Shown here in pieces: positions 14,853-35,193 of a stretch of 64,000 nucleotides of DNA; within the stretch, counting starts at the first letter, position 1, and each line of letters begins with the position of its first letter. The translations under genes were made by a program, and so were the position numbers. Source of the DNA: a virus; the IMG/VR virus record IMGVR_UViG_3300043775_001610, positions 1 through 64,000 of that record, one strand, 5' to 3'. The notes below the pieces were generated by a model. That model did no database searches and had not been told where the DNA came from. It saw only the letters and a list, made by a program, of their open reading frames with translations.

Positions 14853-15200
14853 ATGGCAGGACAAAAGAATTTCGAAGTAGATCAAAATGCAACATTTAGT
14901 TTTATAGTAGAATATAAAGACGAAAATGACGATGCGATTGATCTTACTGGTGCATCTGCAAAGATGCAGGTGCGTGATACAAAAGGCGGCAGCAAGTTAG
15001 CTGTTACATTAACATCACCATCTGGCGGAATTACAATTGATGGACCTAATGGTAAATTAACTGTAAAAATGACACCAACACAAACAAGCAAAATCTTTTA
15101 TCCTAAATCATCTTATGATGTTATGGTTGTAGATTCTAATGGGAATAAGATAAAGCTCCTTGAAGGGTTTATGACCCTAAATAGATCGGTAACTATTTAA
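14853..15200 (+). CDS. virion beta-sandwich adaptor protein
   Basis: DQNATF...IDLTG.SAKMQVR...YD......LLEG pattern common in fibre-attachment proteins. Confidence 0.7.
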   Translation: MAGQKNFEVDQNATFSFIVEYKDENDDAIDLTGASAKMQVRDTKGGSKLAVTLTSPSGGITIDGPNGKLTVKMTPTQTSKIFYPKSSYDVMVVDSNGNKIKLLEGFMTLNRSVTI

Positions 15201-15640: not shown

Positions 15641-15651
15641 GGAGATAGCAA

Positions 15652-16932: not shown

Positions 16933-16939
16933 GTCAAAA

Positions 16940-17404
16940 ATGAAACTTAAGTCTTCGTTAAACCTTCTAACGCTTGCAGAGAATCCATCTGCAGCTTTAG
17001 AAGGTGACGTATACTTTAACATTTTAACAAAAAATATTAGAATATACAATGGAGCAGTTTGGGTAGACATTACTCCTAAAAGCGATGACCCTACTCCATT
17101 TTATATGCACACTCACGCATATGATGGTTCAGTACATACAGTTAATACACAAAATCCTATTAATTTTAAAAATACTAATACAGCACAAAGCGTTTTAGAG
17201 ACTACCCCGCTTGTTTTAGGATTTGACGGTGGTGGACCAGGTGATGAAGTAGATTTTCCTAGGTTTGAAAATCTATCATTACTTTCAGGAGGAGCACCAG
17301 ATTCTTTATACTATCCCGAATCTGATAGTATTGTAATTAATGGTGGGGACTCTTCTGATCAATATTCACCAGTAATAAATGGAGGGGATTCAAGTGGCAA
17401 CTAG
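16940..17404 (+). CDS. minor virion protein
   Basis: P....EGDVYFN......IYNG..W; repeated (D/N)GG motifs. Confidence 0.65.
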   Translation: MKLKSSLNLLTLAENPSAALEGDVYFNILTKNIRIYNGAVWVDITPKSDDPTPFYMHTHAYDGSVHTVNTQNPINFKNTNTAQSVLETTPLVLGFDGGGPGDEVDFPRFENLSLLSGGAPDSLYYPESDSIVINGGDSSDQYSPVINGGDSSGN

Positions 17405-19148
17405 AATTCAATTAAGAAGAGATGTAGAAGATGATTGGTTTAGAGATAACCCAATATTAAGATCTGGAGAAATTGGAATATCTTTAGATTTAAATACATT
17501 TAAAATTGGAGACGGACAAACTCCTTGGAGAGATCTTGATTACGCCTTGGCTGGCACAATTGATGAATATATTCCGTTAAATCAAAAATCAGTTCCTGGT
17601 GGAGTTGCAGCACTAGATTCTGCTGGCAAAGTACCAGATTCTCAAATTCCAGCAGGAATTGCAAGAGATTCAGAAGTATCTTTAGCAATTTCTACAGAGG
17701 TTGAAAATAGAAATTCAGCTATTACAAATGCTATATCAAACCTTATAGATACAGCACCTGATGCATTAAATACTTTAAATGAAATTGCCGCTGCAATTAA
17801 TGATGATGCTTCATACGCTGCAACTATAACAACAGCACTAGGAACAAAAGCTAATTTATCTGATGTTACAGCAGCAACTGCAGCAGCAGCAGCAGATGCT
17901 ACAACAAAGGCTAACGCAGCGCAAGCAGCCGCCGCATCAGATGCTACATCTAAAGCTAGCGCAGCGCAAGCCGCAGCAACTGCTGCAGCCGCATCAGATG
18001 CTACATCTAAAGCTAGCGCAGCTCAAGCAGCAGCTATCTCAGCAGCAGAAACAGATGCTACAACAAAAGCCAACGCAGCTCAAGCAGCAGCTATCTCAGC
18101 AGCAGCAACAGATGCTACAACAAAATCCAGCGCAGCTCAAGCAGCAGCAATATCTGCAGCAGCAACAGATGCTACAACAAAGGCTAACGCAGCACAAGCA
18201 GCAGCAATAACTGCAGCAGGAACAGACGCTACAACTAAGGTAGAAGCAGAAGCAGCACTAAGAGTATCAGGAGATGCAGCTTCAGTATCTACAGCAGCAG
18301 CAGATGCTACAACAAAGGCCAACGCCGCTCAAGCAGCAGCTATCTCAGCAGCAGCAGCAGATGCTACAACAAAGGCTAACGCCGCTCAAGCAGCAGCAAG
18401 CTCTGCGGCAGACACAAAGGTATCATCTGCAATAGCAGCACTTACAAAATCTTCAGTTGGGCTTGCAAATGTTGATAATACAGCAGATGCTTCAAAGCCA
18501 GTGTCTGCAGCACAAGCTACTGCAATCGCAACTGCTAAGTCAGAAGCAATTGCAGATGCAACAGCTCAGGTAAATGCAGTAATCGCATCAGCGCCAGCAG
18601 CACTTAATACTCTAGACGAGCTTGCAGCAGCACTTGGAGACGACGCAAGTTTTGCCGCTACAGTAACAGCTAATCTTTCATCTAAAGCCCCAATTGCCTC
18701 ACCAACATTTACTGGTACAGTATCAGGAATTACAAAGACTATGGTTGGGCTTGGTAATGTTGACAATACTTCTGATACCAACAAACCAATTTCTTCATTA
18801 ACTCAAACTGCTTTAAATGCAAAATCTGATAACTTAATATCTACAGCTGGAACAACAAGTACAAGCTATTCAATAACATCTTCTGATCTTTATAAAAGAA
18901 TAGAGTTTAATTCGGCATCACCAATTACGGTTACTATACCAGCAGATATTACTTTAAACCTACCAATTGGCTCTAGTATTGAATTGCTTCAAGCAAATAC
19001 TGGAAAGATAACTGTTCAGGGAGAGAGTGTATCTGTTTTAATTTATGGACCAGACAATCAATTTAAATCCAGAGTACAGTGGTCATCAATATTTATTGAA
19101 AAAAGAGCAGCAAACAGCTGGTTGGTAACTGGCGATACGGAAGCCTAA
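17394..19148 (+). CDS. tail fibre protein with Mtd-N-like N-terminus and Ala-rich repeats
   Basis: GTG start after GGAGG; TRIQLRR....W...NPIL..GEIG...D...FKIGDG..W; ADATTKANAAQAAA repeats; AP..LNTL.E.A..L.DD. Confidence 0.8.
   Translation: MATRIQLRRDVEDDWFRDNPILRSGEIGISLDLNTFKIGDGQTPWRDLDYALAGTIDEYIPLNQKSVPGGVAALDSAGKVPDSQIPAGIARDSEVSLAISTEVENRNSAITNAISNLIDTAPDALNTLNEIAAAINDDASYAATITTALGTKANLSDVTAATAAAAADATTKANAAQAAAASDATSKASAAQAAATAAAASDATSKASAAQAAAISAAETDATTKANAAQAAAISAAATDATTKSSAAQAAAISAAATDATTKANAAQAAAITAAGTDATTKVEAEAALRVSGDAASVSTAAADATTKANAAQAAAISAAAADATTKANAAQAAASSAADTKVSSAIAALTKSSVGLANVDNTADASKPVSAAQATAIATAKSEAIADATAQVNAVIASAPAALNTLDELAAALGDDASFAATVTANLSSKAPIASPTFTGTVSGITKTMVGLGNVDNTSDTNKPISSLTQTALNAKSDNLISTAGTTSTSYSITSSDLYKRIEFNSASPITVTIPADITLNLPIGSSIELLQANTGKITVQGESVSVLIYGPDNQFKSRVQWSSIFIEKRAANSWLVTGDTEA
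17870..18420 (+). repeat. degenerate tandem repeat encoding (A)DATTKANAAQAAAISAA
   Basis: GATGCTACAACAAA(A/G)GC(T/C)AACGC units; also present in 23040-23900. Confidence 0.85.
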
Positions 19149-20731
19149 TGAGAAGTGCTAAAAAGAAAAGGGTTGTTAACTCTAAGCTTAAAGCATATCA
19201 GCAGTTTTTAGATAGTTTTGGCGGTGTAACATTAAAAGCTGGATGGAAGTCTTACAGGGGATCCTGGGTTCTAGGTACTGGAGTTGCTATAAGTAGCTCA
19301 GACCCATCTACATATGCAATATCTGGAGTTAAGCTTTCGCTTCCAAATCTTACTGCATCTGCTGGAGTTACTGGTGGAACGGGATTAACATATTGGGTAT
19401 CAGATGCTAATAGCTGGGTTGCTTCTGTTTCTTACAATACTACATCTACAAGCTATCCATGCAATACTGGTTTAGTAACTAATGGAAGTAATCCACCATC
19501 TGCAAATTGTTGTGGAGGCGTTTCAACAATAGCTGGATCTGCTCCATATCAGTATGCAGCACAATTAAACCCTGCTTATTCTTTTTCATATTCAGCGGAA
19601 TTAAATCCTGCTTATTCATTTTCATATTCAGCGCAATTAAATCCCGCTTATTCATTTTCATATTCAGCGCAACTTAGCCCTTCTTATTCTTTTTCTTACG
19701 GTGCTGCATACCAGAATCCTTCTTCATCTAGCTACGCAGCATACAATCAGCCAGCATCAAGTTTTACATATAGCGCAAGCAGTTCTTACACAGCCGAAAC
19801 AAGGTGTTGTGGAGTTTTTAATATTTCTAAGGATTTTTATCAAAGAACAAATGGAATACCTTTATGTTCTCAATGCAGCGGGCCATGTGAAGAAACATAT
19901 TCTTTTAGCCAATGTTGTCCTTCAGGTACAACAAAATCAGGTGCAACATGTTATTACCCAGCCTCAGTTACACTGTCTTGCCCTTCTGGAGGAACCTTGT
20001 CTGGAAGTACTTGTACTGTAAGTACGCCAGCATCAACCACCTGTCCTTCAGGAGGAACTTTATCTGGAAATAATTGCATAGTTGATGTGCCTGGATACTA
20101 CTATTGCCCTTCAGGTGGAAACCTAAGTGGGTCTACTTGCACTGTTTCTGTAGCTGCTAGCTACAGCTGCCCTTCAGGCGGTAGCCTAAGTGGGTCTACT
20201 TGCACTGTTTCTGTACCTGCTAGCTACAGCTGCCCTTCAGGTGGTAGCCTAAGTGGGTCTACTTGCACTGTTTCTGTACCTGCTAGCTACAGCTGCCCTT
20301 CAGGTGGTAGCCTAAGTGGGTCTACTTGCACTGTTTCTGTACCTGCTAGCTACAGCTGCCCTTCAGGTGGCTCTTTGTCTGGCACAACATGCTATGTTGG
20401 CCCTGGACCAACTCAGTACAGCTGTTACACTCAAACAACAACGCAAACAAATTATAATTATTATTTAAATGTAATAAAATCAATCGGAGGAGTAGTAAGC
20501 TCAGTCGGTACAGATGTTGCATTGCCTTCACAGCCACTAGCAATAAAAGTTATTATTTCAGGAACAAATGTAAGATCTATTGCATATTCTACAATAGGAA
20601 TGACTAATTCTATAGGAGAAAGATCAGACACAATTACTTCACCGAATAGGACAGGCGTGGTTGGAATAATAAAATCTCCGTCTCCATATAATCAAGGCTC
20701 GACAGTTTCTAACTTTTCTGCTACAATATAA
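19148..20731 (+). CDS. Cys-rich repeat virion/adhesin-like protein
   Basis: 36-bp YxAQLNPAYSFS repeats, central Cys cluster, eight CPSG..LSG.TC units, beta-rich flanks. Confidence 0.75.
   Translation: MRSAKKKRVVNSKLKAYQQFLDSFGGVTLKAGWKSYRGSWVLGTGVAISSSDPSTYAISGVKLSLPNLTASAGVTGGTGLTYWVSDANSWVASVSYNTTSTSYPCNTGLVTNGSNPPSANCCGGVSTIAGSAPYQYAAQLNPAYSFSYSAELNPAYSFSYSAQLNPAYSFSYSAQLSPSYSFSYGAAYQNPSSSSYAAYNQPASSFTYSASSSYTAETRCCGVFNISKDFYQRTNGIPLCSQCSGPCEETYSFSQCCPSGTTKSGATCYYPASVTLSCPSGGTLSGSTCTVSTPASTTCPSGGTLSGNNCIVDVPGYYYCPSGGNLSGSTCTVSVAASYSCPSGGSLSGSTCTVSVPASYSCPSGGSLSGSTCTVSVPASYSCPSGGSLSGSTCTVSVPASYSCPSGGSLSGTTCYVGPGPTQYSCYTQTTTQTNYNYYLNVIKSIGGVVSSVGTDVALPSQPLAIKVIISGTNVRSIAYSTIGMTNSIGERSDTITSPNRTGVVGIIKSPSPYNQGSTVSNFSATI
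19553..19696 (+). repeat. 4 x 36-bp tandem repeat
   Basis: TATTCAGCGCAATTAAATCCCGCTTATTCATTTTCA-like units. Confidence 0.9.
19977..20395 (+). repeat. 63-bp tandem repeat (CPSGGSLSGSTCTVSVPASYS)
   Basis: Seven units, last ones near-identical (CTACAGCTGC at 20161, 20224, 20287, 20350). Confidence 0.9.
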
Positions 20732-20753
20732 ATATAAACAGAAAGAGATAATA

Positions 20754-21002
20754 ATGAAAAATCCATACATGAGGGGTGCCAGACCCTGGGATCTTTTTAA
20801 TAAAGAGCTTGGAAGGGTAGATGAAGATTTAGCCCAAGAGCGACTTGAGATATGTAAAGTTTGTCCAGAGCTTATTAAAGCAACATCTCAGTGTAAAAAG
20901 TGTGGATGTATCATGAATCTAAAAACAAAATTACCAAACGCCAGTTGCCCCCTAGGTAAGTGGTCTGCAGTTAATCCAGATGAAAATGAGGAAATTATAT
21001 AA
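20754..21002 (+). CDS. small Cys-rich protein (DUF6171-like)
   Basis: RPWD...R..IC..CP......QCKKCGC.M..KTKL....CP..KW. Confidence 0.75.
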   Translation: MKNPYMRGARPWDLFNKELGRVDEDLAQERLEICKVCPELIKATSQCKKCGCIMNLKTKLPNASCPLGKWSAVNPDENEEII

Positions 21003-21280
21003 TGGAAAATCCACCAATTAAAGTTGCTTTTGTTATTGATGGCAAAGTTGTAGACGTTTTACACACAGATGAAAGACTCGCTTCAATATTTTTGAGTGAC
21101 CCAGTAGTTATAGATGTAACTGAAATTTATGCCAACGGAGGAGTTGGTATTAATATGACAAACTGGGATTGGGATGGAGAGAATTTTTCATACCCAGCAT
21201 CATCATCAATTGGCTCACCAACAGAAGAAGAGCTCTTAGCAGAAGATTTAGCAATAGAAGAAGCAGACAAGCAACTTTAA
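21002..21280 (+). CDS. small acidic protein (IDG.V...W.WDG..F..P)
   Basis: ORF track; resembles 28521-28967. Confidence 0.7.
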   Translation: MENPPIKVAFVIDGKVVDVLHTDERLASIFLSDPVVIDVTEIYANGGVGINMTNWDWDGENFSYPASSSIGSPTEEELLAEDLAIEEADKQL

Positions 21281-21299
21281 TTATTTAGAAGGGTCGGAT

Positions 21300-21983
21300 A
21301 TGAAGAAAAAAATTCTTAAGTTTGCTATGTACGATGAAGTCTTTAGTCCGATAGTTCCAATAAAATCTTTAGTTCCTGACTGGTATAAGTCTATAGATAA
21401 GTTTAAAGATGGAGCAAAGCAGTATAGCCTTAACCCACCAAATGTAACGGTAAAAGTTTGTGGTCCATATATGGATTCAATGCTTACTGGTTATGCTTTA
21501 ACTGCACCTATAGATTTTTTAGTTGAAATAGAAGATGGAAAGCCAAAGATTAGACATAGGCTAGATGGACGTTTTTTTGGAGAAAGATCTGCAAACCAAG
21601 AAGTTCCAGCTCCTCCAGGATTTTATAGTCAGCAGTTTGCTTGGGAGTCAAAAGTTGCAATCAGCATACCAGAAGGTTATAGTTTTTTGTTTACCCATCC
21701 TTTAAATAGGGTTGACCTTCCATTCTATACCCTTTCTGGAATAGTAGATGGGCCGTATGACATGCAGCCAGGAAACTTCCCATTCTACATAAGAAAAGGA
21801 TTCTCTGGGGTAATTGAGGCTGGCACACCAATAGCTCAAATTATACCAATTAAAAGAGAGCCCTGGAAAGCTATTTCAGATTTAGATATCATTAAGGATG
21901 CAGAAAGAAACCATAAGCTTTCCAATAAGTCTATGATTGGCTGGTACAAGCAGAATATATGGCAAAGAAAGAGCTACGAGTAA
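21300..21983 (+). CDS. DUF6065-related / dUTPase-like beta protein
   Basis: PDWYK...TVK.C.P..D.M.TGY...P.D...P.GYS.LFTHP.NR...G.VD...GTPIAQIIP.KRE.W; paralog of 30611-31330. Confidence 0.7.
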   Translation: MKKKILKFAMYDEVFSPIVPIKSLVPDWYKSIDKFKDGAKQYSLNPPNVTVKVCGPYMDSMLTGYALTAPIDFLVEIEDGKPKIRHRLDGRFFGERSANQEVPAPPGFYSQQFAWESKVAISIPEGYSFLFTHPLNRVDLPFYTLSGIVDGPYDMQPGNFPFYIRKGFSGVIEAGTPIAQIIPIKREPWKAISDLDIIKDAERNHKLSNKSMIGWYKQNIWQRKSYE

Positions 21984-22083
21984 TACAAGCTTTTATAAGC
22001 CCCTTCTTAAAAATAAAAAATATTTAAATTATAATTTTTTATAATGTATAATTAAACCATAAGCAACACTGCCTGGAGGCAAA

Positions 22084-22635
22084 ATGGCAACAAGTTACCC
22101 AACATCAAAAGACAATTTTACTAATCCTGCCGCAACTGAATCAATGGAAGGCCATGCAACGTTGCACGGCAACGTCAATGATGCAATTGAGGCAATTGAA
22201 AACAAGCTTGGCGTAAACGGATCAACAGATGTAAACTCGATAGACTACAAGGTTTCTCAGCTAGAAACAAGCTTAGCTACTCTTGATGCAGAAAACGCTT
22301 CAGAACTTTTGGGGCTAGATGGAAACAACGATCTAACTATAGACGGAATAGAAAACAAAACAGCTATAGATTCATTCTCAAAGACGGTATATAAGACAGT
22401 TAGATACTCCCTGCAGATTGATAAGTCTGTTGGAAACTTAACACACACTTCAACTATTGTACTGCTTAACGATGGAACCAATGTTTACATTTCAGAATCA
22501 GACATAGTGTCAAACACAGATTTATCTTTAGCTACAGTTACTTTTGAAGAAAATAGCGGTATAATAAGTTTGTGCGTAACTCCTGTTTCAGGATCAGTAA
22601 AAGTAAGATATTTTAGAACAGCATTAAAAGCATAA
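22084..22635 (+). CDS. minor virion protein
   Basis: MAT.YP.S.D.F.NP......HA..H.N.NDAIEAIE.KLG; C-terminal IDSF....Y....Y..Q domain. Confidence 0.7.
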   Translation: MATSYPTSKDNFTNPAATESMEGHATLHGNVNDAIEAIENKLGVNGSTDVNSIDYKVSQLETSLATLDAENASELLGLDGNNDLTIDGIENKTAIDSFSKTVYKTVRYSLQIDKSVGNLTHTSTIVLLNDGTNVYISESDIVSNTDLSLATVTFEENSGIISLCVTPVSGSVKVRYFRTALKA

Positions 22636-22661
22636 AAAAGCAGTAAAAGGGAGTCATATCA

Positions 22662-24260
22662 ATGGCAACAGTAAATAAAAACTTTAGAATTAAAAATGGG
22701 CTTATCGTTGAGGGTGGCACAGCTACCGTTAACGGTTTTGGTGTATTAACCAAGGCCCAAGCAGACCAAGACTACATTGTTGGTATTATTGGTGGTACAG
22801 CAACTTCAGCCAATACAGCAAATACAGTAGTAAAACGCGATGCCAATGGCAATTTTGCCGCAGGAACAATTACTGCTACATTTGTTGGTAACCTTACTGG
22901 TGATGTAACAGGTACAGTTTCAAGTCTTTCAAATCATGACACAGCAGACCTTGCAGAAAATCCAGCAAACAAATATTTTACAGATGCTCGTGCATTGTCA
23001 GCAACAGCCGCAGCATACGATGCAGCAGGCTCAGCAGCAGCAGCACAGTCAGCAGCAATTACTGCAGCAGCAACAGATGCTACAACTAAGGTAGCAGCAG
23101 AAGCAGCACTTAGAGTATCAGGCGACGCAGCTTCAGTATCAACTGCAGCAGCAGATGCAACATCTAAGGCTAACGCAGCTCAAGCAGCAGCAGAAGCAAC
23201 CGCAGCAGCAGATGCAACATCTAAGGCTAACGCAGCTCAAGCAGCAGCTATCTCAGCAGCAGCAGCAGATGCTACTACAAAAGCCAACGCAGCACAGTCT
23301 GCAGCAGCAACAGATGCTACTACAAAAGCCAACGCCGCTCAAGCAGCAGCCGAAGCAACAGCAGCAGCAGCGCTTTCATCTGCAATCTCAACAGAGGTTT
23401 CAAACCGTAACTCAGCAATTTCAACTGCAGTAGATTCATTAGTGGATGGCGCACCATCACTTCTTAACACATTAAATGAATTAGCAGCAGCAATCAATGA
23501 TGATGCTAATTACACAACAACTATAACAACAGCCCTTGGAACAAAGGCTAACTCAGCTCAAGTAACAACAGATATCGCGGCAGCAGTTTCAACAGCCGCA
23601 TCAGATGCTACTACAAAAGCTAACGCAGCTCAAGCAGCAGCAGAAGCAACCGCAGCAGCAGATGCAACATCTAAGGCTAACGCAGCTCAAGCAGCAGCAG
23701 AAGCAACAGCAGCAGCAGCGCTTTCAACACACAGCGCAGATACAACAAACATTCACGGAATTGCAGATACTTCACTTCTAGCAACTACAGCAAATGTAGC
23801 AACAGCAGTCTCAACAGCCGCATCAGATGCTACTACAAAAGCTAACGCAGCTCAAGCAGCAGCAGAAGCAACAGCAGCAGCAGCTAATGCAGCTCAGCAA
23901 AATGGAACTACATCATTTACAGCAATTAATTACAATGATGTTGCTAAGCAGGTTGCAGCAACAACTGGAAATATTGCGGTGGCAGCAGAAACAACAGCTA
24001 TCTCATGGGTAGCAGCAGACTACAGAAGCGCTAAGTTTGTAGTAAAAGTAAAAAATGGTGTACATACTCAGGTTTCAGACCTAGTAGTAACCCTTGATAC
24101 TGCAAATAACGTAGCAGTTTCTGAATATGGAATTACATATTCAAACGGAACAGAATTGGCTGCAGTTTCAGCAGATTATTCTGGATCAGATGTAAGAATT
24201 AGAGTAACACCAGCAAACGCTAACACAGAAGTTGTGGTTGTTGGAACGCTAATTAAATAA
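22662..24260 (+). CDS. tail fibre protein with Ala-rich repeats
   Basis: KNF.IKNGL.V, ATSANTA..VV.RD..GNF.AGTITA, ADATTKANAAQAAA repeats, YRSAKF C-terminal domain. Confidence 0.8.
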   Translation: MATVNKNFRIKNGLIVEGGTATVNGFGVLTKAQADQDYIVGIIGGTATSANTANTVVKRDANGNFAAGTITATFVGNLTGDVTGTVSSLSNHDTADLAENPANKYFTDARALSATAAAYDAAGSAAAAQSAAITAAATDATTKVAAEAALRVSGDAASVSTAAADATSKANAAQAAAEATAAADATSKANAAQAAAISAAAADATTKANAAQSAAATDATTKANAAQAAAEATAAAALSSAISTEVSNRNSAISTAVDSLVDGAPSLLNTLNELAAAINDDANYTTTITTALGTKANSAQVTTDIAAAVSTAASDATTKANAAQAAAEATAAADATSKANAAQAAAEATAAAALSTHSADTTNIHGIADTSLLATTANVATAVSTAASDATTKANAAQAAAEATAAAANAAQQNGTTSFTAINYNDVAKQVAATTGNIAVAAETTAISWVAADYRSAKFVVKVKNGVHTQVSDLVVTLDTANNVAVSEYGITYSNGTELAAVSADYSGSDVRIRVTPANANTEVVVVGTLIK

Positions 24261-24274
24261 TTAAATAAAGGTTT

Positions 24275-24299
24275 TGGGGGATTCCTTAAAAATCCCCCA
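24275..24299 (+). terminator. GC hairpin
   Basis: TGGGGGATT...AATCCCCCA after the fibre gene. Confidence 0.5.
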
Positions 24300-24329
24300 C
24301 AAAAACAATTAGGGGATATGTGAACTTAA

Positions 24330-24695
24330 ATGGCAACAGTAGATAAAAATTTTAAAGTAAAAAATGGACTCAATGTAGCAGGCACTGCCACATTTGGGTC
24401 TAACGTCGTTTTAGGCGAAACACCCCTTAGATTTGATACAGCAACAAGCAAGCTACAAATACAGCTAAATGGAACATGGGTTCCAATAGCTTTCAATTCA
24501 GATATTCCAGATACAAGTACAACAATTAGTTTTATGGATATTGGATTAGCCATTGATTATAATGGTCAGCCAATATATACAGTACAGGCAAATGGAGTTA
24601 CTCCTGAAGCAACAAGCAAGTTTGTAGATGGCGGATCGCCATCATCTACAGATGCCGATGTTTCTATGGTTTTTGACTCTGGATCTATATCTTAA
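24330..24695 (+). CDS. minor virion protein
   Basis: MATVDKNFKVKNGL.V N-terminus shared with 22662. Confidence 0.7.
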   Translation: MATVDKNFKVKNGLNVAGTATFGSNVVLGETPLRFDTATSKLQIQLNGTWVPIAFNSDIPDTSTTISFMDIGLAIDYNGQPIYTVQANGVTPEATSKFVDGGSPSSTDADVSMVFDSGSIS

Positions 24696-24748
24696 AGCAA
24701 TAAATGATACAATAAGCAGTATAAATAAAATATATAAGGGGTAACAAA

Positions 24749-27361
24749 ATGGCAACAGTAAGATTACAGTTAAGAAGAGGTACAGAAGCTCAATGGGTGG
24801 CAGCAAACCCAACCCTAGCAGCTGGAGAAATTGGTATTGAAACAGATACTAATACATTTAAATTTGGAGATGGAAGCACTGCTTGGAACTCACTAAGTTA
24901 TGCTCTCTCACAAACAGTAGACGATTATATTCTTCTAAGCACTAAGGGGGTTGCCAATGGAGTTGCTTCATTAGACTCATCAGGATTTATCCCATCATCT
25001 CAACTTCCACCGCTTGCTAAAGTAACCGTAAGCGCTGTTGCAAACCAAGCAGCAAGACTAGCATTGACAGCAGAAGCTGGAGATATTGCTATTCAGTCAG
25101 ATAACGGACAGTCATATGTTCTTTCTGCATCACCTGCATCAACAGATGCAAACTGGAAAGCACTAGTTGGTTCAGAAGCTGTAGTCGATACCGTAGAAAC
25201 AGCATTAGTAGCTGGAACAGGATTAGACAAGACATATAATGATGAAGCAGGAACAATTACAATTGATATTGATTCAACAGTTGCAACACTAACTGGTACA
25301 CAAACACTTACAAATAAAACTTTAACATCTCCAGTTATTAATACACCAACTGGAATTACTAAGTCAGACGTTGGTCTTGCAAATGTTGATAATACAGCAG
25401 ACTCAGCAAAACCAGTATCAACAGCACAAGCATCAGCAATTGCAACTGCCAAGTCAGAAGCTCAAGGATATGCTGATGAGCAAATTGGATTAGTACTTGG
25501 TGCTGCACCAGCAGCGCTAAATACTCTTAACGAGTTAGCAACAGCACTTGGTAATGACGCAAACTTTTCAGGAACTATTACATCAAGCCTTGCAACAAAA
25601 GCTCCAATAAATGCACCAACATTTACTGGTTCTGTAACACTTCCTTCTACAACAACCATTGGCGATGTAAGCAATGTAGAGCTAGGTTATGTAAACGGAG
25701 TAACTTCTGGTATTCAGGTTCAGCTCGATGCAAAAGCACCACTAGCCTCACCAACACTTACTGGTACAGTAACTCTACCAGAATCAACTTCAATCGGTGA
25801 CGTTAGCAATCTAGAAATTGGTTATCTCAACGGCGTTACATCTTCAGTTCAAGGACAAATTGATGCTAAGTTAGCATCAGCAACTGCCGCAACAACTTAC
25901 GCACCACTAGCCTCACCAACACTTACTGGTACAGTAACTCTTCCAGCATCAACTTCAATCGGTGACGTTAGCAATCTAGAAATTGGTTATCTCAACGGCG
26001 TTACATCTTCAGTTCAAGGACAAATTGATGCTAAGTTAGCATCAGCAACTGCCGCAACAACTTACGCAACACTTGTAGCACCAACATTTACTGGAAATGT
26101 AACTCTTCCAGAATCAACTTCAATCGGTGATGTTAGCAACCTAGAAATAGGTTACCTAAACGGAGTAACATCTGGTATTCAAATACAACTAGATGCCAAG
26201 CAGGCAGTTGTTGCTAACGTTTCAGATGTTGAAATTGGCTACCTTGATGGAGTAACATCAGCAATTCAAACTCAATTAAATACCAAGCAGCCAGTTGTTG
26301 CCAACGTTTCAGATGTTGAAATCGGTTACCTTGATGGAGTAACATCATCTATTCAGACTCAAATTGATACTAAAGCACCACTTGCTTCCCCAACATTTAC
26401 AGGAACAGTAACACTTCCTGCAAATACAATTACTCAATCAATGATGTCAGATGATTCAGTTGGAACTGCAGAAATTATTGCAGCATCGGTAACTAGCTCA
26501 GAACTTGCAGTTGATTCAGTAACTGAATCAAAGATTGCAGATGGCGCAGTAACTTCAGCTAAAATTGCAAACGGAACAATCGTAGATGCAGACATTAATG
26601 CTTCTGCAGCAATTGCAACATCTAAGATTTCAGGACTCGATACAGCTCTTGGACTAAAAGCACCACTTGCCTCACCAACATTTACAGGCACAGTATCAGG
26701 AATTACAAAGACTATGGTTGGGCTTGGATCTGTTGATAATACAGCAGACTTAGCAAAGCCAGTATCAACAGCACAGGCTACTGCAATCGCAACTGCTAAG
26801 TCAGAAGCAATTGCAGATGCAACAGCACAGGTAAATGCAGTAATTGCATCTGCTCCAGCAGCACTCAACACACTTGATGAACTTGCTGCAGCACTTGGTG
26901 ATGACGCAAACTTTGCATCGACAGTTACAACTAATTTAGCAGCAAAAGCACCACTTGCTTCCCCAACATTTACTGGTACAGTAACAGTTGCAGCAGCAGG
27001 AGTAGCATTTACAGATGGCACTCAAACAAAAGCTGGTGTCCCATCACTTACAACAATTGGAACTGAAATCTCAGCAGCATATAACCTGTCAACAGGTGGC
27101 CTTGCCCTAAGAGATCAACTTATCCCAGTTGCAGGAACACAGGCAATTACAATACCAACAAATGCAACAACAGCTTTTCCGATTGGTACATCAATTGATT
27201 TTTACCAAGCATCAGGAACTGGCGCAAACTTTGTAGCAGCAGATGGTACAGTTACAATTCTTCGTACACCAGGATTAAAACTAAGAACAACACATTCATC
27301 AGCAACACTTACCAAGGTAGCAGTAAACACTTGGTTGCTAGCTGGAGACTTGACAGCATAA
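24749..27361 (+). CDS. tail fibre protein with Mtd-N-like N-terminus
   Basis: RLQLRRGT.AQW...NP.LA.GEIG.ETDT..FK.GDG.TAW; repeated EIGYL.GVTS.IQ.Q and KAPLASPTFTG; ends W...GDL. Confidence 0.8.
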   Translation: MATVRLQLRRGTEAQWVAANPTLAAGEIGIETDTNTFKFGDGSTAWNSLSYALSQTVDDYILLSTKGVANGVASLDSSGFIPSSQLPPLAKVTVSAVANQAARLALTAEAGDIAIQSDNGQSYVLSASPASTDANWKALVGSEAVVDTVETALVAGTGLDKTYNDEAGTITIDIDSTVATLTGTQTLTNKTLTSPVINTPTGITKSDVGLANVDNTADSAKPVSTAQASAIATAKSEAQGYADEQIGLVLGAAPAALNTLNELATALGNDANFSGTITSSLATKAPINAPTFTGSVTLPSTTTIGDVSNVELGYVNGVTSGIQVQLDAKAPLASPTLTGTVTLPESTSIGDVSNLEIGYLNGVTSSVQGQIDAKLASATAATTYAPLASPTLTGTVTLPASTSIGDVSNLEIGYLNGVTSSVQGQIDAKLASATAATTYATLVAPTFTGNVTLPESTSIGDVSNLEIGYLNGVTSGIQIQLDAKQAVVANVSDVEIGYLDGVTSAIQTQLNTKQPVVANVSDVEIGYLDGVTSSIQTQIDTKAPLASPTFTGTVTLPANTITQSMMSDDSVGTAEIIAASVTSSELAVDSVTESKIADGAVTSAKIANGTIVDADINASAAIATSKISGLDTALGLKAPLASPTFTGTVSGITKTMVGLGSVDNTADLAKPVSTAQATAIATAKSEAIADATAQVNAVIASAPAALNTLDELAAALGDDANFASTVTTNLAAKAPLASPTFTGTVTVAAAGVAFTDGTQTKAGVPSLTTIGTEISAAYNLSTGGLALRDQLIPVAGTQAITIPTNATTAFPIGTSIDFYQASGTGANFVAADGTVTILRTPGLKLRTTHSSATLTKVAVNTWLLAGDLTA

Positions 27362-27390
27362 TTAAAAAAATAAAGATAGGGGCTAAATAA

Positions 27391-28434
27391 ATGGCAAATA
27401 AGAGAATAGGTAGAAAATCCTCAGCGCAGGATAACTTCTTAGAACCAAGTGCAGTTACTTCCTTAACTGCAACAAATGTGGGTACTGGGCGGGCATATAA
27501 TAATGGCGCAGCATCTCTTACATGGTCTTTGCCAGCCGCATCACCCCCAGCAACACTTTATACCATTACATCAACCCCAGCAACAACAACACAAACTACT
27601 TCTAGCACTAGTTATACATTTACTGGATTAGCAAGTGCCACGGCTTATACTTTTACAGTTGTTGCTTCAAACGCTGCGGGATCATCTCAGCCAACAACAT
27701 CAGGATCAATAACTGCTACAACAGTTCCGCAAGCTCCAAACGCATCTGTTTCAACAAGTGCCGCTGGGCCAACCCCAGTCCCAGCTTCTGGCTTTGACAG
27801 AATTACTTTTTCTGCAAACGCTACAGGTGGAAGCGCAATAACTACTTTTCAAATTACTTCTAGCATTCGTGGATCTTTGTCTGCTTCTGCAACATCTCCA
27901 TTTGATACAGCATCTCCAAACTCTGAAACTTATACTGTTTACGCAACGAATGCAAATGGACAGTCTGCTGGCACGACAACTGGAACTGTAGAAACTTTTA
28001 CGCCACCACACTTCCCACCGTTCTTCCCACCGTTCTTCCCACCACATTTCCCACCATTCTTCCCACCTTTCTTCCCACCACACTTCCCACCGTTCTTCCC
28101 ACCACACTTCCCACCGTTCTTCCCACCGTTCTTCCCACCACATTTCCCACCATTCTTCCCACCACACTTCCCACCATTCTTCCCACCATTCTTCCCACCG
28201 TTCTTCCCACCGTTCTTCCCACCACACTTCCCACCGTTCTTCCCACCACACTTCCCACCGTTCTTCCCACCGTTCTTCCCACCGTTCTTCCCACCGTTCT
28301 TCCCACCTTACTTCCCACCGTTCTTCCCACCACACTTCCCACCGTTCTTCCCACCGTTCTTCCCGCCACACTTTGTAGGAGGATCCTACTTCTGCCCATG
28401 GTGTGATTGCGCAGGGTCTAACTGGTACTGCTAA
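27391..28434 (+). CDS. FN3-domain virion protein with (PPxF)31 tract and C-terminal Cys cluster
   Basis: LTW..P......Y......FTGL...T.YTFTV.A.N..G.S FN3 signature; PPHF/PPFF repeats; [13 protein letters not shown]. Confidence 0.8.
28003..28374 (+). repeat. 31 x 12-bp tandem repeat CCACC(A/G)(TTC/CAC)TTC
   Basis: 372 nt encoding 20 PPFF, 10 PPHF and 1 PPYF. Confidence 0.95.
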
Positions 28435-28444
28435 TTAATACTAA

Positions 28445-28470
28445 CTGGGGCAATAGAAATATTGCCCCAG
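28445..28470 (+). terminator. perfect hairpin after the PPxF gene
   Basis: CTGGGGCAATA-GAAA-TATTGCCCCAG. Confidence 0.6.
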
Positions 28471-28520
28471 GGTATTGATAAAAAATAAAAAATATTGTAC
28501 AATTATTAAAAGGAGATATA

Positions 28521-28967
28521 ATGCCATACTTTGGATATGTAAGAGACGGAATAGTCAAATACGTTCAGCTTGTAACAAGCTCTACCCCCGCACAGTCAAA
28601 ATGGATAGCGCTAAATAGATCAGGAGTTATCTTAAAAGACTCAAGTAATTACGATGTAATGCCAGGAGACTTGTTTACTGATGGTAAATTTTATAAAAAA
28701 GACGCCGAAACTAATAATACAACTTTACTAGAAGATGGTGCATTTACTCTCCCAAACGCAATAAGAGTTGCTGGAATTGTTGATGGCGAAATAGTCGGAC
28801 AATGGGGAATGGGAACAGAACTCTTTGAAAACATAGAAGAAGCTCATCAGTTTATTGATGATATAGTTAACTCTCAAATAGTTGAAATAGAACAAGAGCA
28901 GCAGTTTTTAGTTGAAAAAGGTTGGCTTTATGATGGAGTCAATTTTACTAACCCAGACAATGCTTGA
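28521..28967 (+). CDS. hypothetical protein (two V.DG.V...G...DG..F units)
   Basis: ORF track; resembles 21002-21280. Confidence 0.7.
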   Translation: MPYFGYVRDGIVKYVQLVTSSTPAQSKWIALNRSGVILKDSSNYDVMPGDLFTDGKFYKKDAETNNTTLLEDGAFTLPNAIRVAGIVDGEIVGQWGMGTELFENIEEAHQFIDDIVNSQIVEIEQEQQFLVEKGWLYDGVNFTNPDNA

Positions 28968-29221
28968 TGAGCAGCGATAGCAAAAAAAGTGCTTGGGAAA
29001 AGTATAAAGAAAGTCTAGGAGACTCCAGACCTTGGGATTTTTTAGATCCAAATACAAAATATGTAGATAAATCTGTATCTGAAAAAAGATACAGTATTTG
29101 TCTATCTTGTCCAGAATTTATAAAAACAACAAAACAGTGTAAAAAATGTGGCTGTGTAATGACTTTAAAAACTAAACTTAGTAACGCTGAGTGTCCAATA
29201 GAAAAATGGGGAAAAGAATGA
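28964..29221 (+). CDS. small Cys-rich protein (DUF6171-like)
   Basis: RPWD...ICLSCP......QCKKCGCVM..KTKL....CP..KW; paralog of 20754. Confidence 0.75.
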   Translation: MMSSDSKKSAWEKYKESLGDSRPWDFLDPNTKYVDKSVSEKRYSICLSCPEFIKTTKQCKKCGCVMTLKTKLSNAECPIEKWGKE

Positions 29222-29880
29222 TGTATGAAAAAGAAGAGCTATTTCCAGGACTTTGGGTATATAGAAACGTAATTACTCCAGAGATGGATATAATTAATAG
29301 GCTAGAAAACGCTATAAGTAATTCCAAAGGTATGCATACTTGGAAAGAAGCAACAGTCGGATACAGAGAAAAAATGCCTGACTATAGAGATTGCGTAGAC
29401 TTTAAATGGAAAAAGTTCGATGATGATTTTGGAAACAAATACAATACCGAAGTGAATTCAGTATGGCAAGATGTATATGATGTTCAGGCTGTTGCACTAA
29501 ATGATTACTCTTCTTTTTACAATATTGAGTTAAAGTATTGGGAAGCAATGAATTTTATTAAATATGGAGAAGGTCAACATTTTTCTTACCATTCAGATCA
29601 TGGTTGGTCATATATATCAACAGTATCAATGGTTGCATATATTAACGATGATTATGAAGAGGGCGGACTAAGATTTGATAAGCTTGATTTAACAATAAAA
29701 CCAAAAGCTGGAGACCTATACATATTCCCATCTACATATTTATTTTCACACGCTGCTCTTCCAGTAAAATCTGGTATTAAATATTCAATTGTTACAATGA
29801 CAGATTATAATGATGCTACACATACAGAATCTTTTTATAGACAATTTATGTCTGAAAAGTCAATGAAAGATGGGTACTGA
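29218..29880 (+). CDS. 2OG-Fe(II) oxygenase (prolyl 4-hydroxylase-like)
   Basis: KYGEGQHF..HSD...YINDDYEEGGL.F...KPKAGD..IFPS..LFSHA..PVKSG.KYSIV. Confidence 0.9.
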   Translation: MMYEKEELFPGLWVYRNVITPEMDIINRLENAISNSKGMHTWKEATVGYREKMPDYRDCVDFKWKKFDDDFGNKYNTEVNSVWQDVYDVQAVALNDYSSFYNIELKYWEAMNFIKYGEGQHFSYHSDHGWSYISTVSMVAYINDDYEEGGLRFDKLDLTIKPKAGDLYIFPSTYLFSHAALPVKSGIKYSIVTMTDYNDATHTESFYRQFMSEKSMKDGY

Positions 29881-30614
29881 TGAACTTTGATGTTTATAAA
29901 GTTTATCCAAATCAATCAGCAAATATCCAGCCTTTAGGTGTAAAAAGAGAATGGATGGATGAGACATCTGATAAGCATGCTTATCATTGTTTTCCAGTAA
30001 GCTTATCAAATACTTTAGGTTGGGGAATTTCTTTTCCAGTTGATATTGAATTTATTTGGGACGGTATATCAGATTCAACGGATACTCATGTTAAGGTTTT
30101 AAAGGGTCACGAGTATGTTTCAACCTCAAGGGCTAATGCAACCATTAGCTTTAATACAAATTTGGTAATAAGAAGCGAAGAAAATGTAAGTATGCTGGCT
30201 ATGCCGACACCAAACTGGCCAATAGATGGCGTTTGGCCTTTTACAACGTTAATAAGCACTTCATTTTTTAAAGGAACATTTCCTGTTGCATGGAGAATAA
30301 CAAAGGCTAACGAAGTTATTACTATACCAGCTAACACGCCAGTAGCATCAGTAATTCCTATATCTTTATCTAACTTAAACAATTCAGTAGCAACAATAAA
30401 AGGATACAAAGACTTGCCTATAGACTTTTTCCCAAAAGAAGACTACGGTAAAATTGTTAGCGATATTAATAAATCTGGAAAATGGACTGACTTCTATAGA
30501 AATGCTGTAGACCATAAGAATAATAAAATTGGATCTCATGAGGTAAAATCTTTAAGATTAAAAAATGATGAAACTTTCATAGATGGTCCAGAAGGCTGCG
30601 GTATACCAAAATGA
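29880..30614 (+). CDS. DUF6065 family protein
   Basis: I.P....R.WMD.T...HAY.C.P....N..GW.I..P.D....WDG. Confidence 0.75.
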   Translation: MNFDVYKVYPNQSANIQPLGVKREWMDETSDKHAYHCFPVSLSNTLGWGISFPVDIEFIWDGISDSTDTHVKVLKGHEYVSTSRANATISFNTNLVIRSEENVSMLAMPTPNWPIDGVWPFTTLISTSFFKGTFPVAWRITKANEVITIPANTPVASVIPISLSNLNNSVATIKGYKDLPIDFFPKEDYGKIVSDINKSGKWTDFYRNAVDHKNNKIGSHEVKSLRLKNDETFIDGPEGCGIPK

Positions 30615-31330
30615 ACAAGATAACATTTCATTCTAACAAGCATTATAATGATACAGAAACAGCACCCTGCCCAACTGCAAAAGTTATACCAAAATGGTGG
30701 CATGATGCTGATATTTATATAAAAGATTTTTATGGCAATCCAGTTTCTAATGCAAATAAAGACGGCGGTAAGATGCTAAACTTTAAAGCATGTCCAGCTA
30801 TGCTTGATACATTTACAACAGGATACACACTTGTTACACCTTGTGATATAGAATTTTATGAAAAAAATAATAGAATCAAAGCAAAAGTTCCATTAAAGTT
30901 TGATGATTTTGTTGGAGAGAGGCCAGCATCTGATGGATTCCAAGTTCCTTTTGGCTATGATAAGAATCATTTTCATTGGTATGCTAATTGGGCTCCACAG
31001 CTACCAGAAGGGTACAGCTCTTTGTATGTTCAGCCTATAAATCATTTTGATTTACCATGGCTTACTGTTGGTGGTATAATAGATAGTGATAAGGTTACAA
31101 CCTCTGGGCTGATACCGTTTTTTATACAAAATGGATTTACTGGCGTTGTTCCAGCAGGGACACCATATTTACAAATAATACCATTTAAAAGAGAAGATTG
31201 GGAATCAGATTTTATTTTTCATAAGCCAATTGATATTATGCAAAAAGCTATGAAGACGTCAGAGACTTTTAGAACACCAGAGGGTGGAGTCTATAAGAAG
31301 AAATTTTGGACTAGAAGGAGATATAAGTAA
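30611..31330 (+). CDS. DUF6065-related protein
   Basis: IP.WW...FKACPA.LD...TGY...TPCD...P.GYS.L...P.N...G.IDSD...GTP..QIIPFKRE.W; paralog of 21300. Confidence 0.7.
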   Translation: MNKITFHSNKHYNDTETAPCPTAKVIPKWWHDADIYIKDFYGNPVSNANKDGGKMLNFKACPAMLDTFTTGYTLVTPCDIEFYEKNNRIKAKVPLKFDDFVGERPASDGFQVPFGYDKNHFHWYANWAPQLPEGYSSLYVQPINHFDLPWLTVGGIIDSDKVTTSGLIPFFIQNGFTGVVPAGTPYLQIIPFKREDWESDFIFHKPIDIMQKAMKTSETFRTPEGGVYKKKFWTRRRYK

Positions 31331-32020
31331 ATGGAAAAAAGATTAAATACCAATAAAACTCACGACTACAGGTCTTTGGGATCTATAACTCCATCTGGAT
31401 TCTTTGGCGCAGGACCTGAAAATATTGTAGAGTTAAAAAACTTTTTAACAGATGAAGAAAGAGTAAGACTCACCCACTTTGCTAAAAACAATACAACTTG
31501 GGATATTACAGATTCTCACGTAAATGAAAATGGAACTGTGATATATGATGCTAACGCTTGGCACGACAGAGTTTGCACTCGTAGATCTATGGAAATTTCT
31601 GCTGACCCACATATTGTAGATGTTGTAGACAACCTAATATCCAGACTGCAGGTAGAGGTAGAAAAATTTTTTAACGTTAAGGTACAAGCAACAGGCCCAG
31701 CTATTGTTAGATGGCCAATAGGGTCAAGACAGGATCCACACGCAGACAAAGAGCTTCACGAAGGTCCAGATGCAGGAACTCCAAACGATTTTCCACATTA
31801 CGATATAGCTTCATTATTTTATTTTAACGATGACTACGAAGGCGGAGAATTGTTTTTCCCTGTTCAAGGAATAGAATTTAAACCTGTTGGGGGATCAGCA
31901 TATTTTTTCCCAGGAGATAAAAATTATATTCATGGAGTAAGACCAATTATCGCAGGAGGAAGATACACCTCACCATTCTTTTGGCAGATACTTGAGCACA
32001 CTGGTGACATAAAGCCATGA
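31331..32020 (+). CDS. 2OG-Fe(II) oxygenase
   Basis: RWP.G..Q.PHAD...YFNDDYEGGELFFP...FFPGD..YIHGV....GGRYT. Confidence 0.9.
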   Translation: MEKRLNTNKTHDYRSLGSITPSGFFGAGPENIVELKNFLTDEERVRLTHFAKNNTTWDITDSHVNENGTVIYDANAWHDRVCTRRSMEISADPHIVDVVDNLISRLQVEVEKFFNVKVQATGPAIVRWPIGSRQDPHADKELHEGPDAGTPNDFPHYDIASLFYFNDDYEGGELFFPVQGIEFKPVGGSAYFFPGDKNYIHGVRPIIAGGRYTSPFFWQILEHTGDIKP

Positions 32021-32871
32021 CCCTTGAATATAAAGAGATATATCCAAAGATATGGGTATTTAAAAATCCATGGAAAGACATAGACCTATTAACAAAAACA
32101 ATAATTGATTCGGAACAAAACCCAGAAGGCTCTGCTTTAAATTGGCATGGCTGGTACACCTTTGGAAAAGAAGCTGATCAGTTTAACCATTCAATTGAAT
32201 CATCTGAAAGAACTGAATTAGAAAAACGTTTCTGGGATGAAATAATTGAGGTTTTTAATAAAACAACAAGTCAGTATGCGGATACTTTTAGCGTACCACT
32301 TGATAGAGACGCAATAGTTTTTAACGAAGAAACTGGAAACGATGATCCTATGTGGAAAAGAATGGGACCTTCAATATGTAAGTATGAAGTCGATGGAGGA
32401 ATTGAAGATTCCGACCTTGCAATGCATGTACATACAGACTACCAAAGAGACTATCATGATTTTAGAGGATATAAGTTTACGTTTACCTGCACCATGTATT
32501 TAAATGGAGACTATGAAGGCGGAGGACTTACTTTTTTGGTAGACAATAAAACTCTTTATTACAAACCAGAAAAGGGCGACATTTTGTTATTCCCAGCAGG
32601 AGACCCAGATTTTCTTTCCGATGCTGGACAATTTTATATGCATGGAGTTGAAAAAGTTAAGGGCACCCCTAAGTATTTTGTAAGAAACCATTGGGTTAGA
32701 TTTTATCCTGGATCGCCAGAATGGCTAGAAAACGAAAAACTTTATGGAAAAGAAATATGGAAAGAAATGGAAATTGCCAGAACTAAAGAAGAAAGAAAGT
32801 CTGGAGCTTATCAAACAATAAACTATGATGAACTTAAAAAGCTAGAAAGGATTAATTTAAATGACATTTAA
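32017..32871 (+). CDS. 2OG-Fe(II) oxygenase
   Basis: HTD...YLNGDYEGGGL.F...YKPEKGD...FP...HGV......KY. Confidence 0.88.
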   Translation: MTLEYKEIYPKIWVFKNPWKDIDLLTKTIIDSEQNPEGSALNWHGWYTFGKEADQFNHSIESSERTELEKRFWDEIIEVFNKTTSQYADTFSVPLDRDAIVFNEETGNDDPMWKRMGPSICKYEVDGGIEDSDLAMHVHTDYQRDYHDFRGYKFTFTCTMYLNGDYEGGGLTFLVDNKTLYYKPEKGDILLFPAGDPDFLSDAGQFYMHGVEKVKGTPKYFVRNHWVRFYPGSPEWLENEKLYGKEIWKEMEIARTKEERKSGAYQTINYDELKKLERINLNDI

Positions 32872-33613
32872 TTTAGAAAATCAGAATAGAGTTAAAGAAG
32901 ACATAGTGTTTTTTGAAAATTTTCTTAGTCCAGAAGATTGCGAAAAAGTTATTAAATATTGGGAGCATTCTGTAGAAAAAGGAACTCTTCCATGGGCACC
33001 AATATCATTCTACGATTCCTTTGCTTCAAATTTACCAGACGATGAAGACAAGGAAAAGTTTGGCCTTCCTTCTGATTTTTTTACTAAGCTTCAAGATAAA
33101 ATACAAGAGGCTACAGAAATATGTAGAGGCGATAAGGTTAGACTAGTTAGCTATCACGCACAGAAATGGGTAGAGGGAGCTTATGCAGGTTACCATTCAG
33201 ACAATACCCCAATAGATTCTCCAGAATACAACTCTTTTGAAAGAAGCAAGTGGGCAGCATTCCTTTACTTAAATGATGATTTTGAAGGTGGCGTTTTAAA
33301 CTTTAGGGATCATGATATTTCTTTGCAGCCAAAAACTGGAATGCTAGCAGCATTTGCTGGAGGTCATCACAATATACATGAAGTACAAATGATTACTAAG
33401 GGAACAAGAATAACTATAGGATCATTTTGGGATAATGAAGAGGCTGTTTATAGCGAAGAAAAGCAGGCTATGTGGGAAACCGATATAGCAGATCAAAGAA
33501 AAAGACAGGCAGAGGACGCAGAGCTTTGGGCAGAACTTAAAGCAAGAGGTGAAAGACTAAAGCCTGGACCAGATCAAACTGCTAAAAAAGAAGTAGCATT
33601 GGAGATAGAATGA
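32861..33613 (+). CDS. 2OG-Fe(II) oxygenase
   Basis: HSDN...LYLNDDFEGG.L.F...PK.G....F.G...N.HEV..I..G.R. Confidence 0.88.
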   Translation: MTFNLENQNRVKEDIVFFENFLSPEDCEKVIKYWEHSVEKGTLPWAPISFYDSFASNLPDDEDKEKFGLPSDFFTKLQDKIQEATEICRGDKVRLVSYHAQKWVEGAYAGYHSDNTPIDSPEYNSFERSKWAAFLYLNDDFEGGVLNFRDHDISLQPKTGMLAAFAGGHHNIHEVQMITKGTRITIGSFWDNEEAVYSEEKQAMWETDIADQRKRQAEDAELWAELKARGERLKPGPDQTAKKEVALEIE

Positions 33614-34419: not shown

Positions 34420-34464
34420 AAATATCTGGTACAATTATTACAAAAGTTATAAATAGGAGGAAGT

Positions 34465-35181: not shown

Positions 35182-35193
35182 AAAGAGTTAATT

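Follow-up and report, generated by a model that had tools for sequence, protein, structure and literature searches.

The chlorovirus PBCV-1 reportedly encodes a prolyl 4-hydroxylase (P4H) along with proline-rich repeat open reading frames (ORFs) of its own, as Eriksson et al. are said to have described in 1999. In phages, we know of no substrate for the arrays of 2-oxoglutarate (2OG)-dependent oxygenases since these were first described. Here, we analyze a 64,000-nucleotide stretch of viral DNA (positions 1 to 64,000 of IMG/VR virus record IMGVR_UViG_3300043775_001610; the window) with two cassettes of small helper genes, each 3' of a fiber gene and a low-complexity tip protein gene and one of them running into such an oxygenase array. 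Two described systems come closest. In fiber-chaperone pairs (Mu S/TfaMu, lambda stf-tfa, and Pam3 gp24-gp25; PMC9608196), a small gene directly 3' of the fiber gene varies together with the far end of the protein it serves, much as a gene directly 3' of the tip gene does here with its presumed client, and the N-terminal beta-sandwich of gp25 of cyanophage Pam3 is the variable part that embraces the fiber tip. In phage Syn9, a dioxygenase array has a dUTPase-fold companion, already noted by Iyer et al. (2010), and was proposed by those authors to perform secondary-metabolite chemistry (PMC2938197).

A sequence-only reading of the window had described the cassette as present twice and had taken the helpers to be one dedicated kit paired with each variable tip, with a substrate-plus-tailoring-enzyme logic like that of ribosomally synthesized and posttranslationally modified peptide (RiPP) clusters. 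All genes named in that reading are present at the positions given there as plus-strand ORFs (Table 1; genes are called by their start positions), and the recurrence of the cassette was borne out. Both cassettes open with Mtd_N fibers, and their helper genes are homologous. The two DUF6171 proteins share 55% identity over 62 amino acids (aa) (E = 4e-27), and both score above the PF19668 gathering cutoff of 27 (35.3 bits for 20754 and 27.5 bits for 28964), an assignment that a search of the genome confirmed. Proteins 21300 and 30611 align over their full length with 31% identity (E = 2e-39), and each matches phrog_7084 at ∼1e-30. The third pair, termed WDG here, is weak when compared directly (BLAST E = 0.001). 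Despite this, homology at the sequence level is secured through the family: in an alignment of 19 WDG relatives, a ∼65-aa unit ending in G..WDG..F..P is duplicated in tandem, and 21002, a single unit, matches a family hidden Markov model (HMM) built without it. The tip proteins 19148 and 27391 are unrelated to each other in comparison, just as had been claimed.

The notion of a single kit per tip, however, survived only in part. The helper set is really two layers with different partners. WDG and DUF6171 (layer 1) co-vary with a Cys-rich tail at the end of the tip protein and are nearly confined to loci with such tails, whereas the DUF6065 and dUTPase-fold proteins (layer 2) stay with the oxygenases whatever the tail. 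The comparison covered ∼130 related viral contigs and phage fragments overall, including a close set of 55 contigs and a distant set of 69 loci analyzed out of 80 kept, with 41 to 60% identity in 30611.

The tip protein of cassette B belongs to a family built of an FN3 domain and a proline-rich stalk, FN3-(FPPx)n. In 27391, a basic N terminus and FN3 are followed by 31 PP(F/H/Y)F units (76 Pro), and the last 19 aa form a tail that contains four Cys. The 12-nt repeat in its gene (27998 to 28374) varies from 22 to 38 copies in relatives with ∼90% identical flanks, and the conserved tail stays in frame after this variable number of repeats; the reading frame of 27391 is therefore fixed. About six tail classes occur. 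To each belong a particular WDG class and a particular DUF6171 variant, a pairing that holds across backbone clades, with several classes per clade. When the window is compared with two relatives (L018 and L023), DNA homology (87 to 97%) ends at 28382 to 28383, in the last repeat, and resumes at 28994 and 29079, inside the DUF6171 gene. Therefore, the exchanged block runs from the tail through the WDG gene into the 5' end of the DUF6171 gene. The 12-nt repeat forms the left breakpoint of this tail-module exchange.

The same pairing was evident from counts. Among 77 distinct tails, helpers within the next three genes were compared between 18 tails with at least four Cys and 54 tails that were Cys-poor, long, or intein-like. 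In counts that ignore shared descent, DUF6171 followed 12/18 of the former but 2/54 of the latter (Fisher P = 9e-8), rising to 14/18 when six-frame matches in L036 and L037 were added. Either helper was found at 17/18 versus 2/54 loci (P = 2e-13). Synechococcus phage S-IOM18, a cyanomyovirus, supports the link between Cys-rich proteins and DUF6171 as an independent case: 3' of a fiber, a 315-aa protein rich in Cys is followed in turn by a thioredoxin-like protein with a CPQC motif, DUF6171, and a 2OG-oxygenase-like gene (L001:5480-7853). At another locus (L155), DUF6171 has a 51-Cys protein upstream. On lake metagenome-assembled genome (MAG) contigs (L150:3-620 and L151:3-242), the Cys-tail types of some FPPx proteins also cap (APSPV)n and (PVT)n stalks, and here, too, DUF6171 and an oxygenase come next. 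Judging from these sequences, the Cys-rich knob is a module common to different Pro-rich stalk chemistries.

Synteny of this kind may also arise without function, if the locus is a recombination-prone accessory island in which unrelated morons or auxiliary genes hitchhike, with recombination anchored in the repeat and in the conserved oxygenase gene. Breakpoints do coincide with the 12-nt repeat and with conserved genes 3' of it, helpers are found in other contexts, and gene order is unlike between the two cassettes (tip, DUF6171, WDG, and dUTPase-fold in A; tip, WDG, DUF6171, oxygenase, DUF6065, and dUTPase-fold in B). Hitchhiking alone, however, would hardly yield the 17/18 versus 2/54 distribution. 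A T4-like cyanophage and unrelated stalks also show the pairing, and the helpers are translationally coupled. We therefore regard hitchhiking as a doubtful, though still serious, explanation.

The predicted structure of WDG may fit a role at the knob. The AlphaFold2 (AF2) model of 28521 (predicted local distance difference test [pLDDT] score of 91) is a tandem beta-sandwich that ends in a second beta/alpha unit, not in a helical bundle. In an exhaustive structural alignment to 48,161 chains, the top match was Pam3 gp25 (Z = 5.3; rmsd of 3.2; 58 aligned residues; 21% identity), aligned through its N-terminal beta-sandwich, and the second was TfaMu (Z = 3.4). The fiber-binding beta-sandwich domains of these two chaperones are thus nearest to the WDG model. 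A feature-based lead likewise pointed, weakly, from WDG to Caudo_TAP, while a Pfam search of 19 WDG members at E values up to 1 gave no Caudo_TAP match, and Foldseek against BFVD returned uncharacterized family members only. WDG differs from Tfa systems in that its unit is tandemly duplicated, without the helical trimerization domain or a Caudo_TAP match. Moreover, the presumed client here is a 12- to 30-aa Cys knob on a Pro-rich stalk, not a trimeric fiber tip, and there is a second, six-Cys helper. We read WDG as a protein that may work like a Tfa chaperone rather than as a member of the Tfa family. Its own family (64 clusters) occurs in this phage lineage only.

DUF6171 has six invariant Cys (CxxC...CxxCxC...CP) in 23 aligned sequences. 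Judged by this Cys pattern, it is probably a small zinc-binding or thiol-active protein, and the metal/thiol chaperone of the sequence-only reading is likewise a conjecture from the pattern. An NCBIfam scan of DUF6171 gave only a chance-level lead to a metal-binding selenoprotein, and when PDB sequences were searched by profile, no match rose above chance level, a RING-like NSE1 stretch for DUF6171 (E = 0.33) being one example. A scan of cellular genome contigs matched DUF6171 on lake MAG contigs only, and these resemble misbinned phage fragments. A search of a paper library for the names DUF6171 and DUF6065 found no paper.

In contrast to layer 1, layer 2 (oxygenases, DUF6065, and dUTPase-fold proteins) follows nearly every FN3-(FPPx)n protein, whatever its tail. 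Across the 55 close contigs and 69 distant loci, one order is conserved: fiber, FN3-(FPPx)n protein, optional small genes, one or more P4H-like oxygenases, DUF6065, dUTPase-fold protein, and more oxygenases. This makes cassette B part of the core of the lineage. Cassette A is optional: it is an indel, located between 16940 and 22084, that is intact in seven contigs and missing from many otherwise collinear ones. Homologs of its tip protein (461 to 494 aa) occur in these seven contigs and are always followed by homologs of 20754, 21002, and 21300. In some relatives, the slot of cassette A is occupied by a 792-aa protein that has FPPx repeats at its end, along with DUF6171 alone.

The first oxygenase, 29191, matches PF13640 with 47.5 bits, and the H-S-D residues and a distal His can be read in its translation. 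Its closest solved chains are the Bacillus anthracis P4H (E = 1.4e-4) and the lysyl hydroxylase LH3. Seven oxygenases form the array in the window, and nine are present in the genome. What the locus would share with PBCV-1 and with bacterial P4H and collagen-like proteins is the encoding of P4H-type oxygenases together with long Pro-rich repeats. Here, in contrast to PBCV-1, an array of seven predicted oxygenases stands beside a (Phe-Pro-Pro-x)n protein in a phage fiber block.

Proteins 21300 and 30611, which had been called DUF6065-like, turned out to belong elsewhere. In a model of 30611 (pLDDT of 95, from an alignment including 21300), the top 22 VIA-align matches were all dUTPases or dCTP deaminases (Z = 9.8 to 5.5), the next unrelated chain scoring a Z of 4.5, and Foldseek agreed. 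The family is thus predicted to have a dUTPase-type fold. It comprises 1,429 clusters at 50% identity, and its consensus contains an invariant Cys and stretches like motifs 1, 3, and 4, without the Gly-rich motif 5. The likeness to the trimeric dUTPase/dCTP deaminase superfamily thus lies in these stretches and in the fold, with Z up to 9.8 over ∼120 residues. The family nevertheless differs in being ∼100 residues longer, in lacking motif 5, and in a context that is not nucleotide metabolism. Pfam and NCBIfam scans of the cassette proteins gave no dUTPase family, and a profile search of PDB sequences with this family gave no match. DUF6065 itself (PF19541) is matched by 29880 only (114 bits), with no Pfam match for 21300 or 30611. 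Protein 29880 is a remote relative of these two (phrog_7084 at 2.5e-4; hhalign probability of 53%, E = 1.3e-4, over 126 columns) and is without the IID.D motif of the dUTPase-fold family. A tblastn search of isolate phages with DUF6065 gave no match. Cupin-type oxygenases were considered for the DUF6065-like proteins and rejected in view of the dUTPase-like fold.

The association of the dUTPase-fold family with phage oxygenase arrays is already known, and it raises the question of what layer 2 acts upon. Small molecules or nucleotides, rather than virion proteins, are one answer (secondary-metabolite, DNA, or nucleotide-pool chemistry; compare Iyer et al. on Syn9). Indeed, Syn9 gp43, at the head of the published dioxygenase/halogenase array (PMC2938197), matches our dUTPase-fold HMM (E = 1.4e-15), and the positions of the motif-3-like Asp and motif-4-like Gln are kept in the family, as judged by inspection. 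Lone family members adjoin ribonucleotide reductase in haloarchaeal viruses. A third paralog in the present genome (106642 to 107418, outside the window) lies far from the fibers, beside two 2OG oxygenases (103728 and 104913). On the other hand, the block lies directly 3' of Pro-rich stalk proteins in nearly all 69 distant loci, and those oxygenases of known structure that come closest have peptidyl Pro or Lys as their substrate. The Syn9 array (L169:7932-17000) is itself just 3' of three fiber genes and gp36, a Gly-rich protein with eight Cys. Small-molecule chemistry thus appears unlikely to us. Syn9 resembles the present locus in placing a dUTPase-fold protein with the invariant Cys in a 2OG-oxygenase array 3' of fibers, but it differs in having halogenases and JmjC-type members and, in the stretch examined, no DUF6171, WDG, or FPPx protein. 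We note that a GroES-like gene (105888), assigned by eye without a family search, lies near the third paralog.

Members of the FN3-(FPPx)n family end in one of three forms. Many are tail-less or carry a short Cys-free peptide. Many others end in a 165- to 200-aa Hint/intein-like domain with an N-terminal Cys and, in some (L091, L114, and L056), a C-terminal HN; the Intein_splicing, PT-HINT, and Hint_2 matches of these domains are all subthreshold. Such an end would imply self-cleavage at the end of the stalk. The third form is a 12- to 50-aa tail with four to nine Cys. Hint-ended loci (L091:3481-4818, L114:1963-3342, L088:3253-4590, and L056:2-1768) are all without WDG, and all but L056 are without DUF6171. 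The tip protein of cassette A, 19148, is built differently: beta-rich at both ends, it contains 12-aa Y/S repeats, a core rich in Cys, and eight CPSGG..C units of 21 aa each, and its gene has tandem repeats of 36 and 63 nt. It gave no match in Pfam, PHROG, or NCBIfam.

Short, hypervariable, Cys-rich tails with small genes adjacent, and self-cleaving Hint domains at the same position in relatives, could also be taken for a true RiPP-like system in which the tail would serve as the core peptide, to be modified, cut off, and released. However, the tail forms one polypeptide with FN3 and the stalk within a fiber gene block, many family members are tail-less, and no radical SAM, lanthipeptide, YcaO, or protease family was matched on any cassette protein. 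More specifically, Pfam, PHROGs, and NCBIfam searches of ten cassette proteins detected no known RiPP maturase (radical SAM, LanM/LanB, or YcaO) or leader protease. Released peptides are therefore very improbable. For the RiPP-like logic of the sequence-only reading, no leader, protease, or known maturase family was found; its pairing of substrate with tailoring enzymes would fit the oxygenase block that follows Pro-rich stalks in distant relatives.

From homology, folds, synteny, module exchange, and statistical association, we infer the binding and chemical steps of the following proposal. Each Mtd_N fiber gene would be followed by the gene for a tip or accessory virion protein composed of an attachment domain, a low-complexity stalk, and a Cys-rich element. 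WDG and DUF6171 would bind this Cys-rich knob and mature it (by folding, disulfide formation, or metal loading), as Tfa does for a fiber tip; because of this proposed function, the helpers would be exchanged along with the knob. The P4H-like oxygenases would hydroxylate the Pro-rich stalk, and for the dUTPase-fold proteins, both an enzymatic role with nucleotide binding and a role as a trimeric partner to the oxygenases are possible. That layer 1 provides knob-specific assembly factors, comparable to a fiber chaperone plus a Cys-specific accessory, is the reading we favor, at about even odds; that layer 2 modifies the stalk is held with less confidence. As a whole, the scheme is tentative. It envisages modular adhesin maturation in lake phages, with oxygenases and dUTPase-fold partners hydroxylating a stalk whose exchangeable end is a Cys knob needing a Tfa-like binder and the six-Cys DUF6171, a self-cleaving Hint domain, or nothing.

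Several observations weigh against this scheme. The tail and the WDG gene are <100 nt apart, so cotransfer is expected even without a functional link, and the counts above take no account of shared descent. DUF6171 is missing at some loci with Cys-rich tails (L032, L102, L142, L145, and L112), several such tails having WDG only, and one Cys-free tail class keeps the WDG gene. Cassette A has no oxygenase. For WDG, the resemblance to Tfa proteins is weak at the Z-scores given, Foldseek of the model against PDB gave no match, and the conserved C-terminal helical (trimerization) domain of Tfa proteins is absent. Helpers also occur away from fibers: DUF6171 is found among early or small genes without a fiber in Stenotrophomonas phage Marzo and other phages, and dUTPase-fold genes stand alone in haloarchaeal viruses. 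Together with the third paralog and the Syn9 member, these cases speak against the one dedicated kit that had been supposed. The neighborhood analysis supported the link of layer 1 to Cys-rich tails but also placed helpers in other surroundings.

If the scheme is true, phage P4H genes that had no explanation and two DUF families would gain a defined substrate and role. Phages would then chemically tailor their own host-binding proteins, and exchange of a knob with its helpers would be a route of host range change. The locus and its relatives offer a concrete candidate for the client in the FN3-(FPPx)n protein that bears a Cys knob, and helpers that track the knob can be separated from enzymes that track the stalk.

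Table 1. Features of the two cassettes in the window
Feature	Coordinates	Strand	Properties
Cassette A fiber	17379..19148	+	589 aa; Mtd_N N terminus (PF18454, 7.5e-9), Ala/Gln-rich 57-nt repeats, tail-fiber PHROGs
Cassette A tip protein	19148..20731	+	527 aa, 26 Cys
DUF6171 copy A	20754..21002	+	82 aa, six invariant Cys; PF19668, 1.5e-8
WDG protein A	21002..21280	+	92 aa, single unit; WDG HMM match, E = 4.8e-6
dUTPase-fold protein A (predicted)	21300..21983	+	227 aa; phrog_7084 family, 1e-30
Cassette B fiber	24749..27361	+	870 aa; Mtd_N (PF18454, 8.2e-16), 165/87-nt repeats; kept in all relatives
Cassette B tip protein	27391..28434	+	347 aa; FN3 (PF00041, 2e-9); 12-nt repeat × 29.5
Hairpin, promoter-like site, and strong ribosome-binding site	28445..28503	+	directly 5' of helper genes; consensus matches only
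WDG protein B	28521..28967	+	148 aa, two units; AF2 pLDDT of 91
DUF6171 copy B	28964..29221	+	84 to 85 aa; PF19668, 4e-6
First P4H-like 2OG-Fe(II) oxygenase	29191..29880	+	PF13640, 3.6e-12
DUF6065 protein	29880..30614	+	244 aa; PF19541, 1e-32
dUTPase-fold protein B (predicted)	30611..31330	+	239 aa; AF2 pLDDT of 95
Six further 2OG-Fe(II) oxygenase paralogs	31331..35739	+	PF13640 on 31331, phrog_61 on 35194; kept in relatives

The two cassettes match at the DNA level in their fibers only, and a recent duplication within the genome was rejected on this account. Because DNA similarity is limited to the fibers and the gene order differs, either the duplication is old or cassette A was acquired from another phage. 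In a tree of DUF6171, which is poorly resolved for so short a protein, the cassette A copy is not sister to the cassette B copy. The two fibers have their N- and C-terminal parts in common (57% and 48% identity). The Ala/Gln-rich 57-nt repeats of 17379 are shared with a 532-aa protein, 22662, at up to 86% identity (17826 to 18430 and 23009 to 23900), and are likely recombination substrates within the fiber block. The N termini of both tip proteins are basic and lead into (Q/N)FL(D/E) motifs that resemble each other (19148 to 19240 and 27391 to 27480), which could be a shared docking peptide.

The six oxygenase paralogs of the array are contiguous with 30611, and their stops and starts mostly touch or overlap. 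Two gene starts in cassette B merit comment. DUF6171 copy B likely starts at the ATG at 28967, overlapping the WDG stop, with the Atlas entry beginning at residue 2, and the true start of the 29191 oxygenase is probably near 29218, its ORF being ∼220 aa in relatives.

The window is the first part of a single 110,252-bp viral contig with a CheckV completeness of 92%. Megablast of the region against isolate phages gave no DNA-level match, and the relatives are IMG/VR contigs and MAG contigs from Lakes Mendota and Erken; the source is therefore an uncultured freshwater siphovirus-like lake phage of 110 kb. Along the window, ribonucleotide reductase (12381) is followed by the fiber block (14853 to 27361) and then by the helper genes and the seven consecutive 2OG-Fe(II) oxygenases (28521 to 35739). 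The genes for a Laminin_G_3 protein (35766), portal (37931), protease (39568), and major capsid protein (40900) come next. A 3,514-aa ORF 3' of the major capsid protein gene, which we take to be a putative tape measure gene, precedes that for a minor tail protein (57917). The Laminin_G_3 (concanavalin A-like lectin) protein between the array and the portal (35766 to 37526; 586 aa) has 31 to 97% identity to its relatives; a terminase had been considered for this gene and was rejected in favor of Laminin_G_3. Finally, the intergenic stretch between the tip and WDG genes of cassette B contains a perfect hairpin with an 11-bp stem, a promoter-like TTGATA-17-TACAAT, and an AAGGAG ribosome-binding site, and the helper genes 3' of 28503 may form a separate transcription unit.

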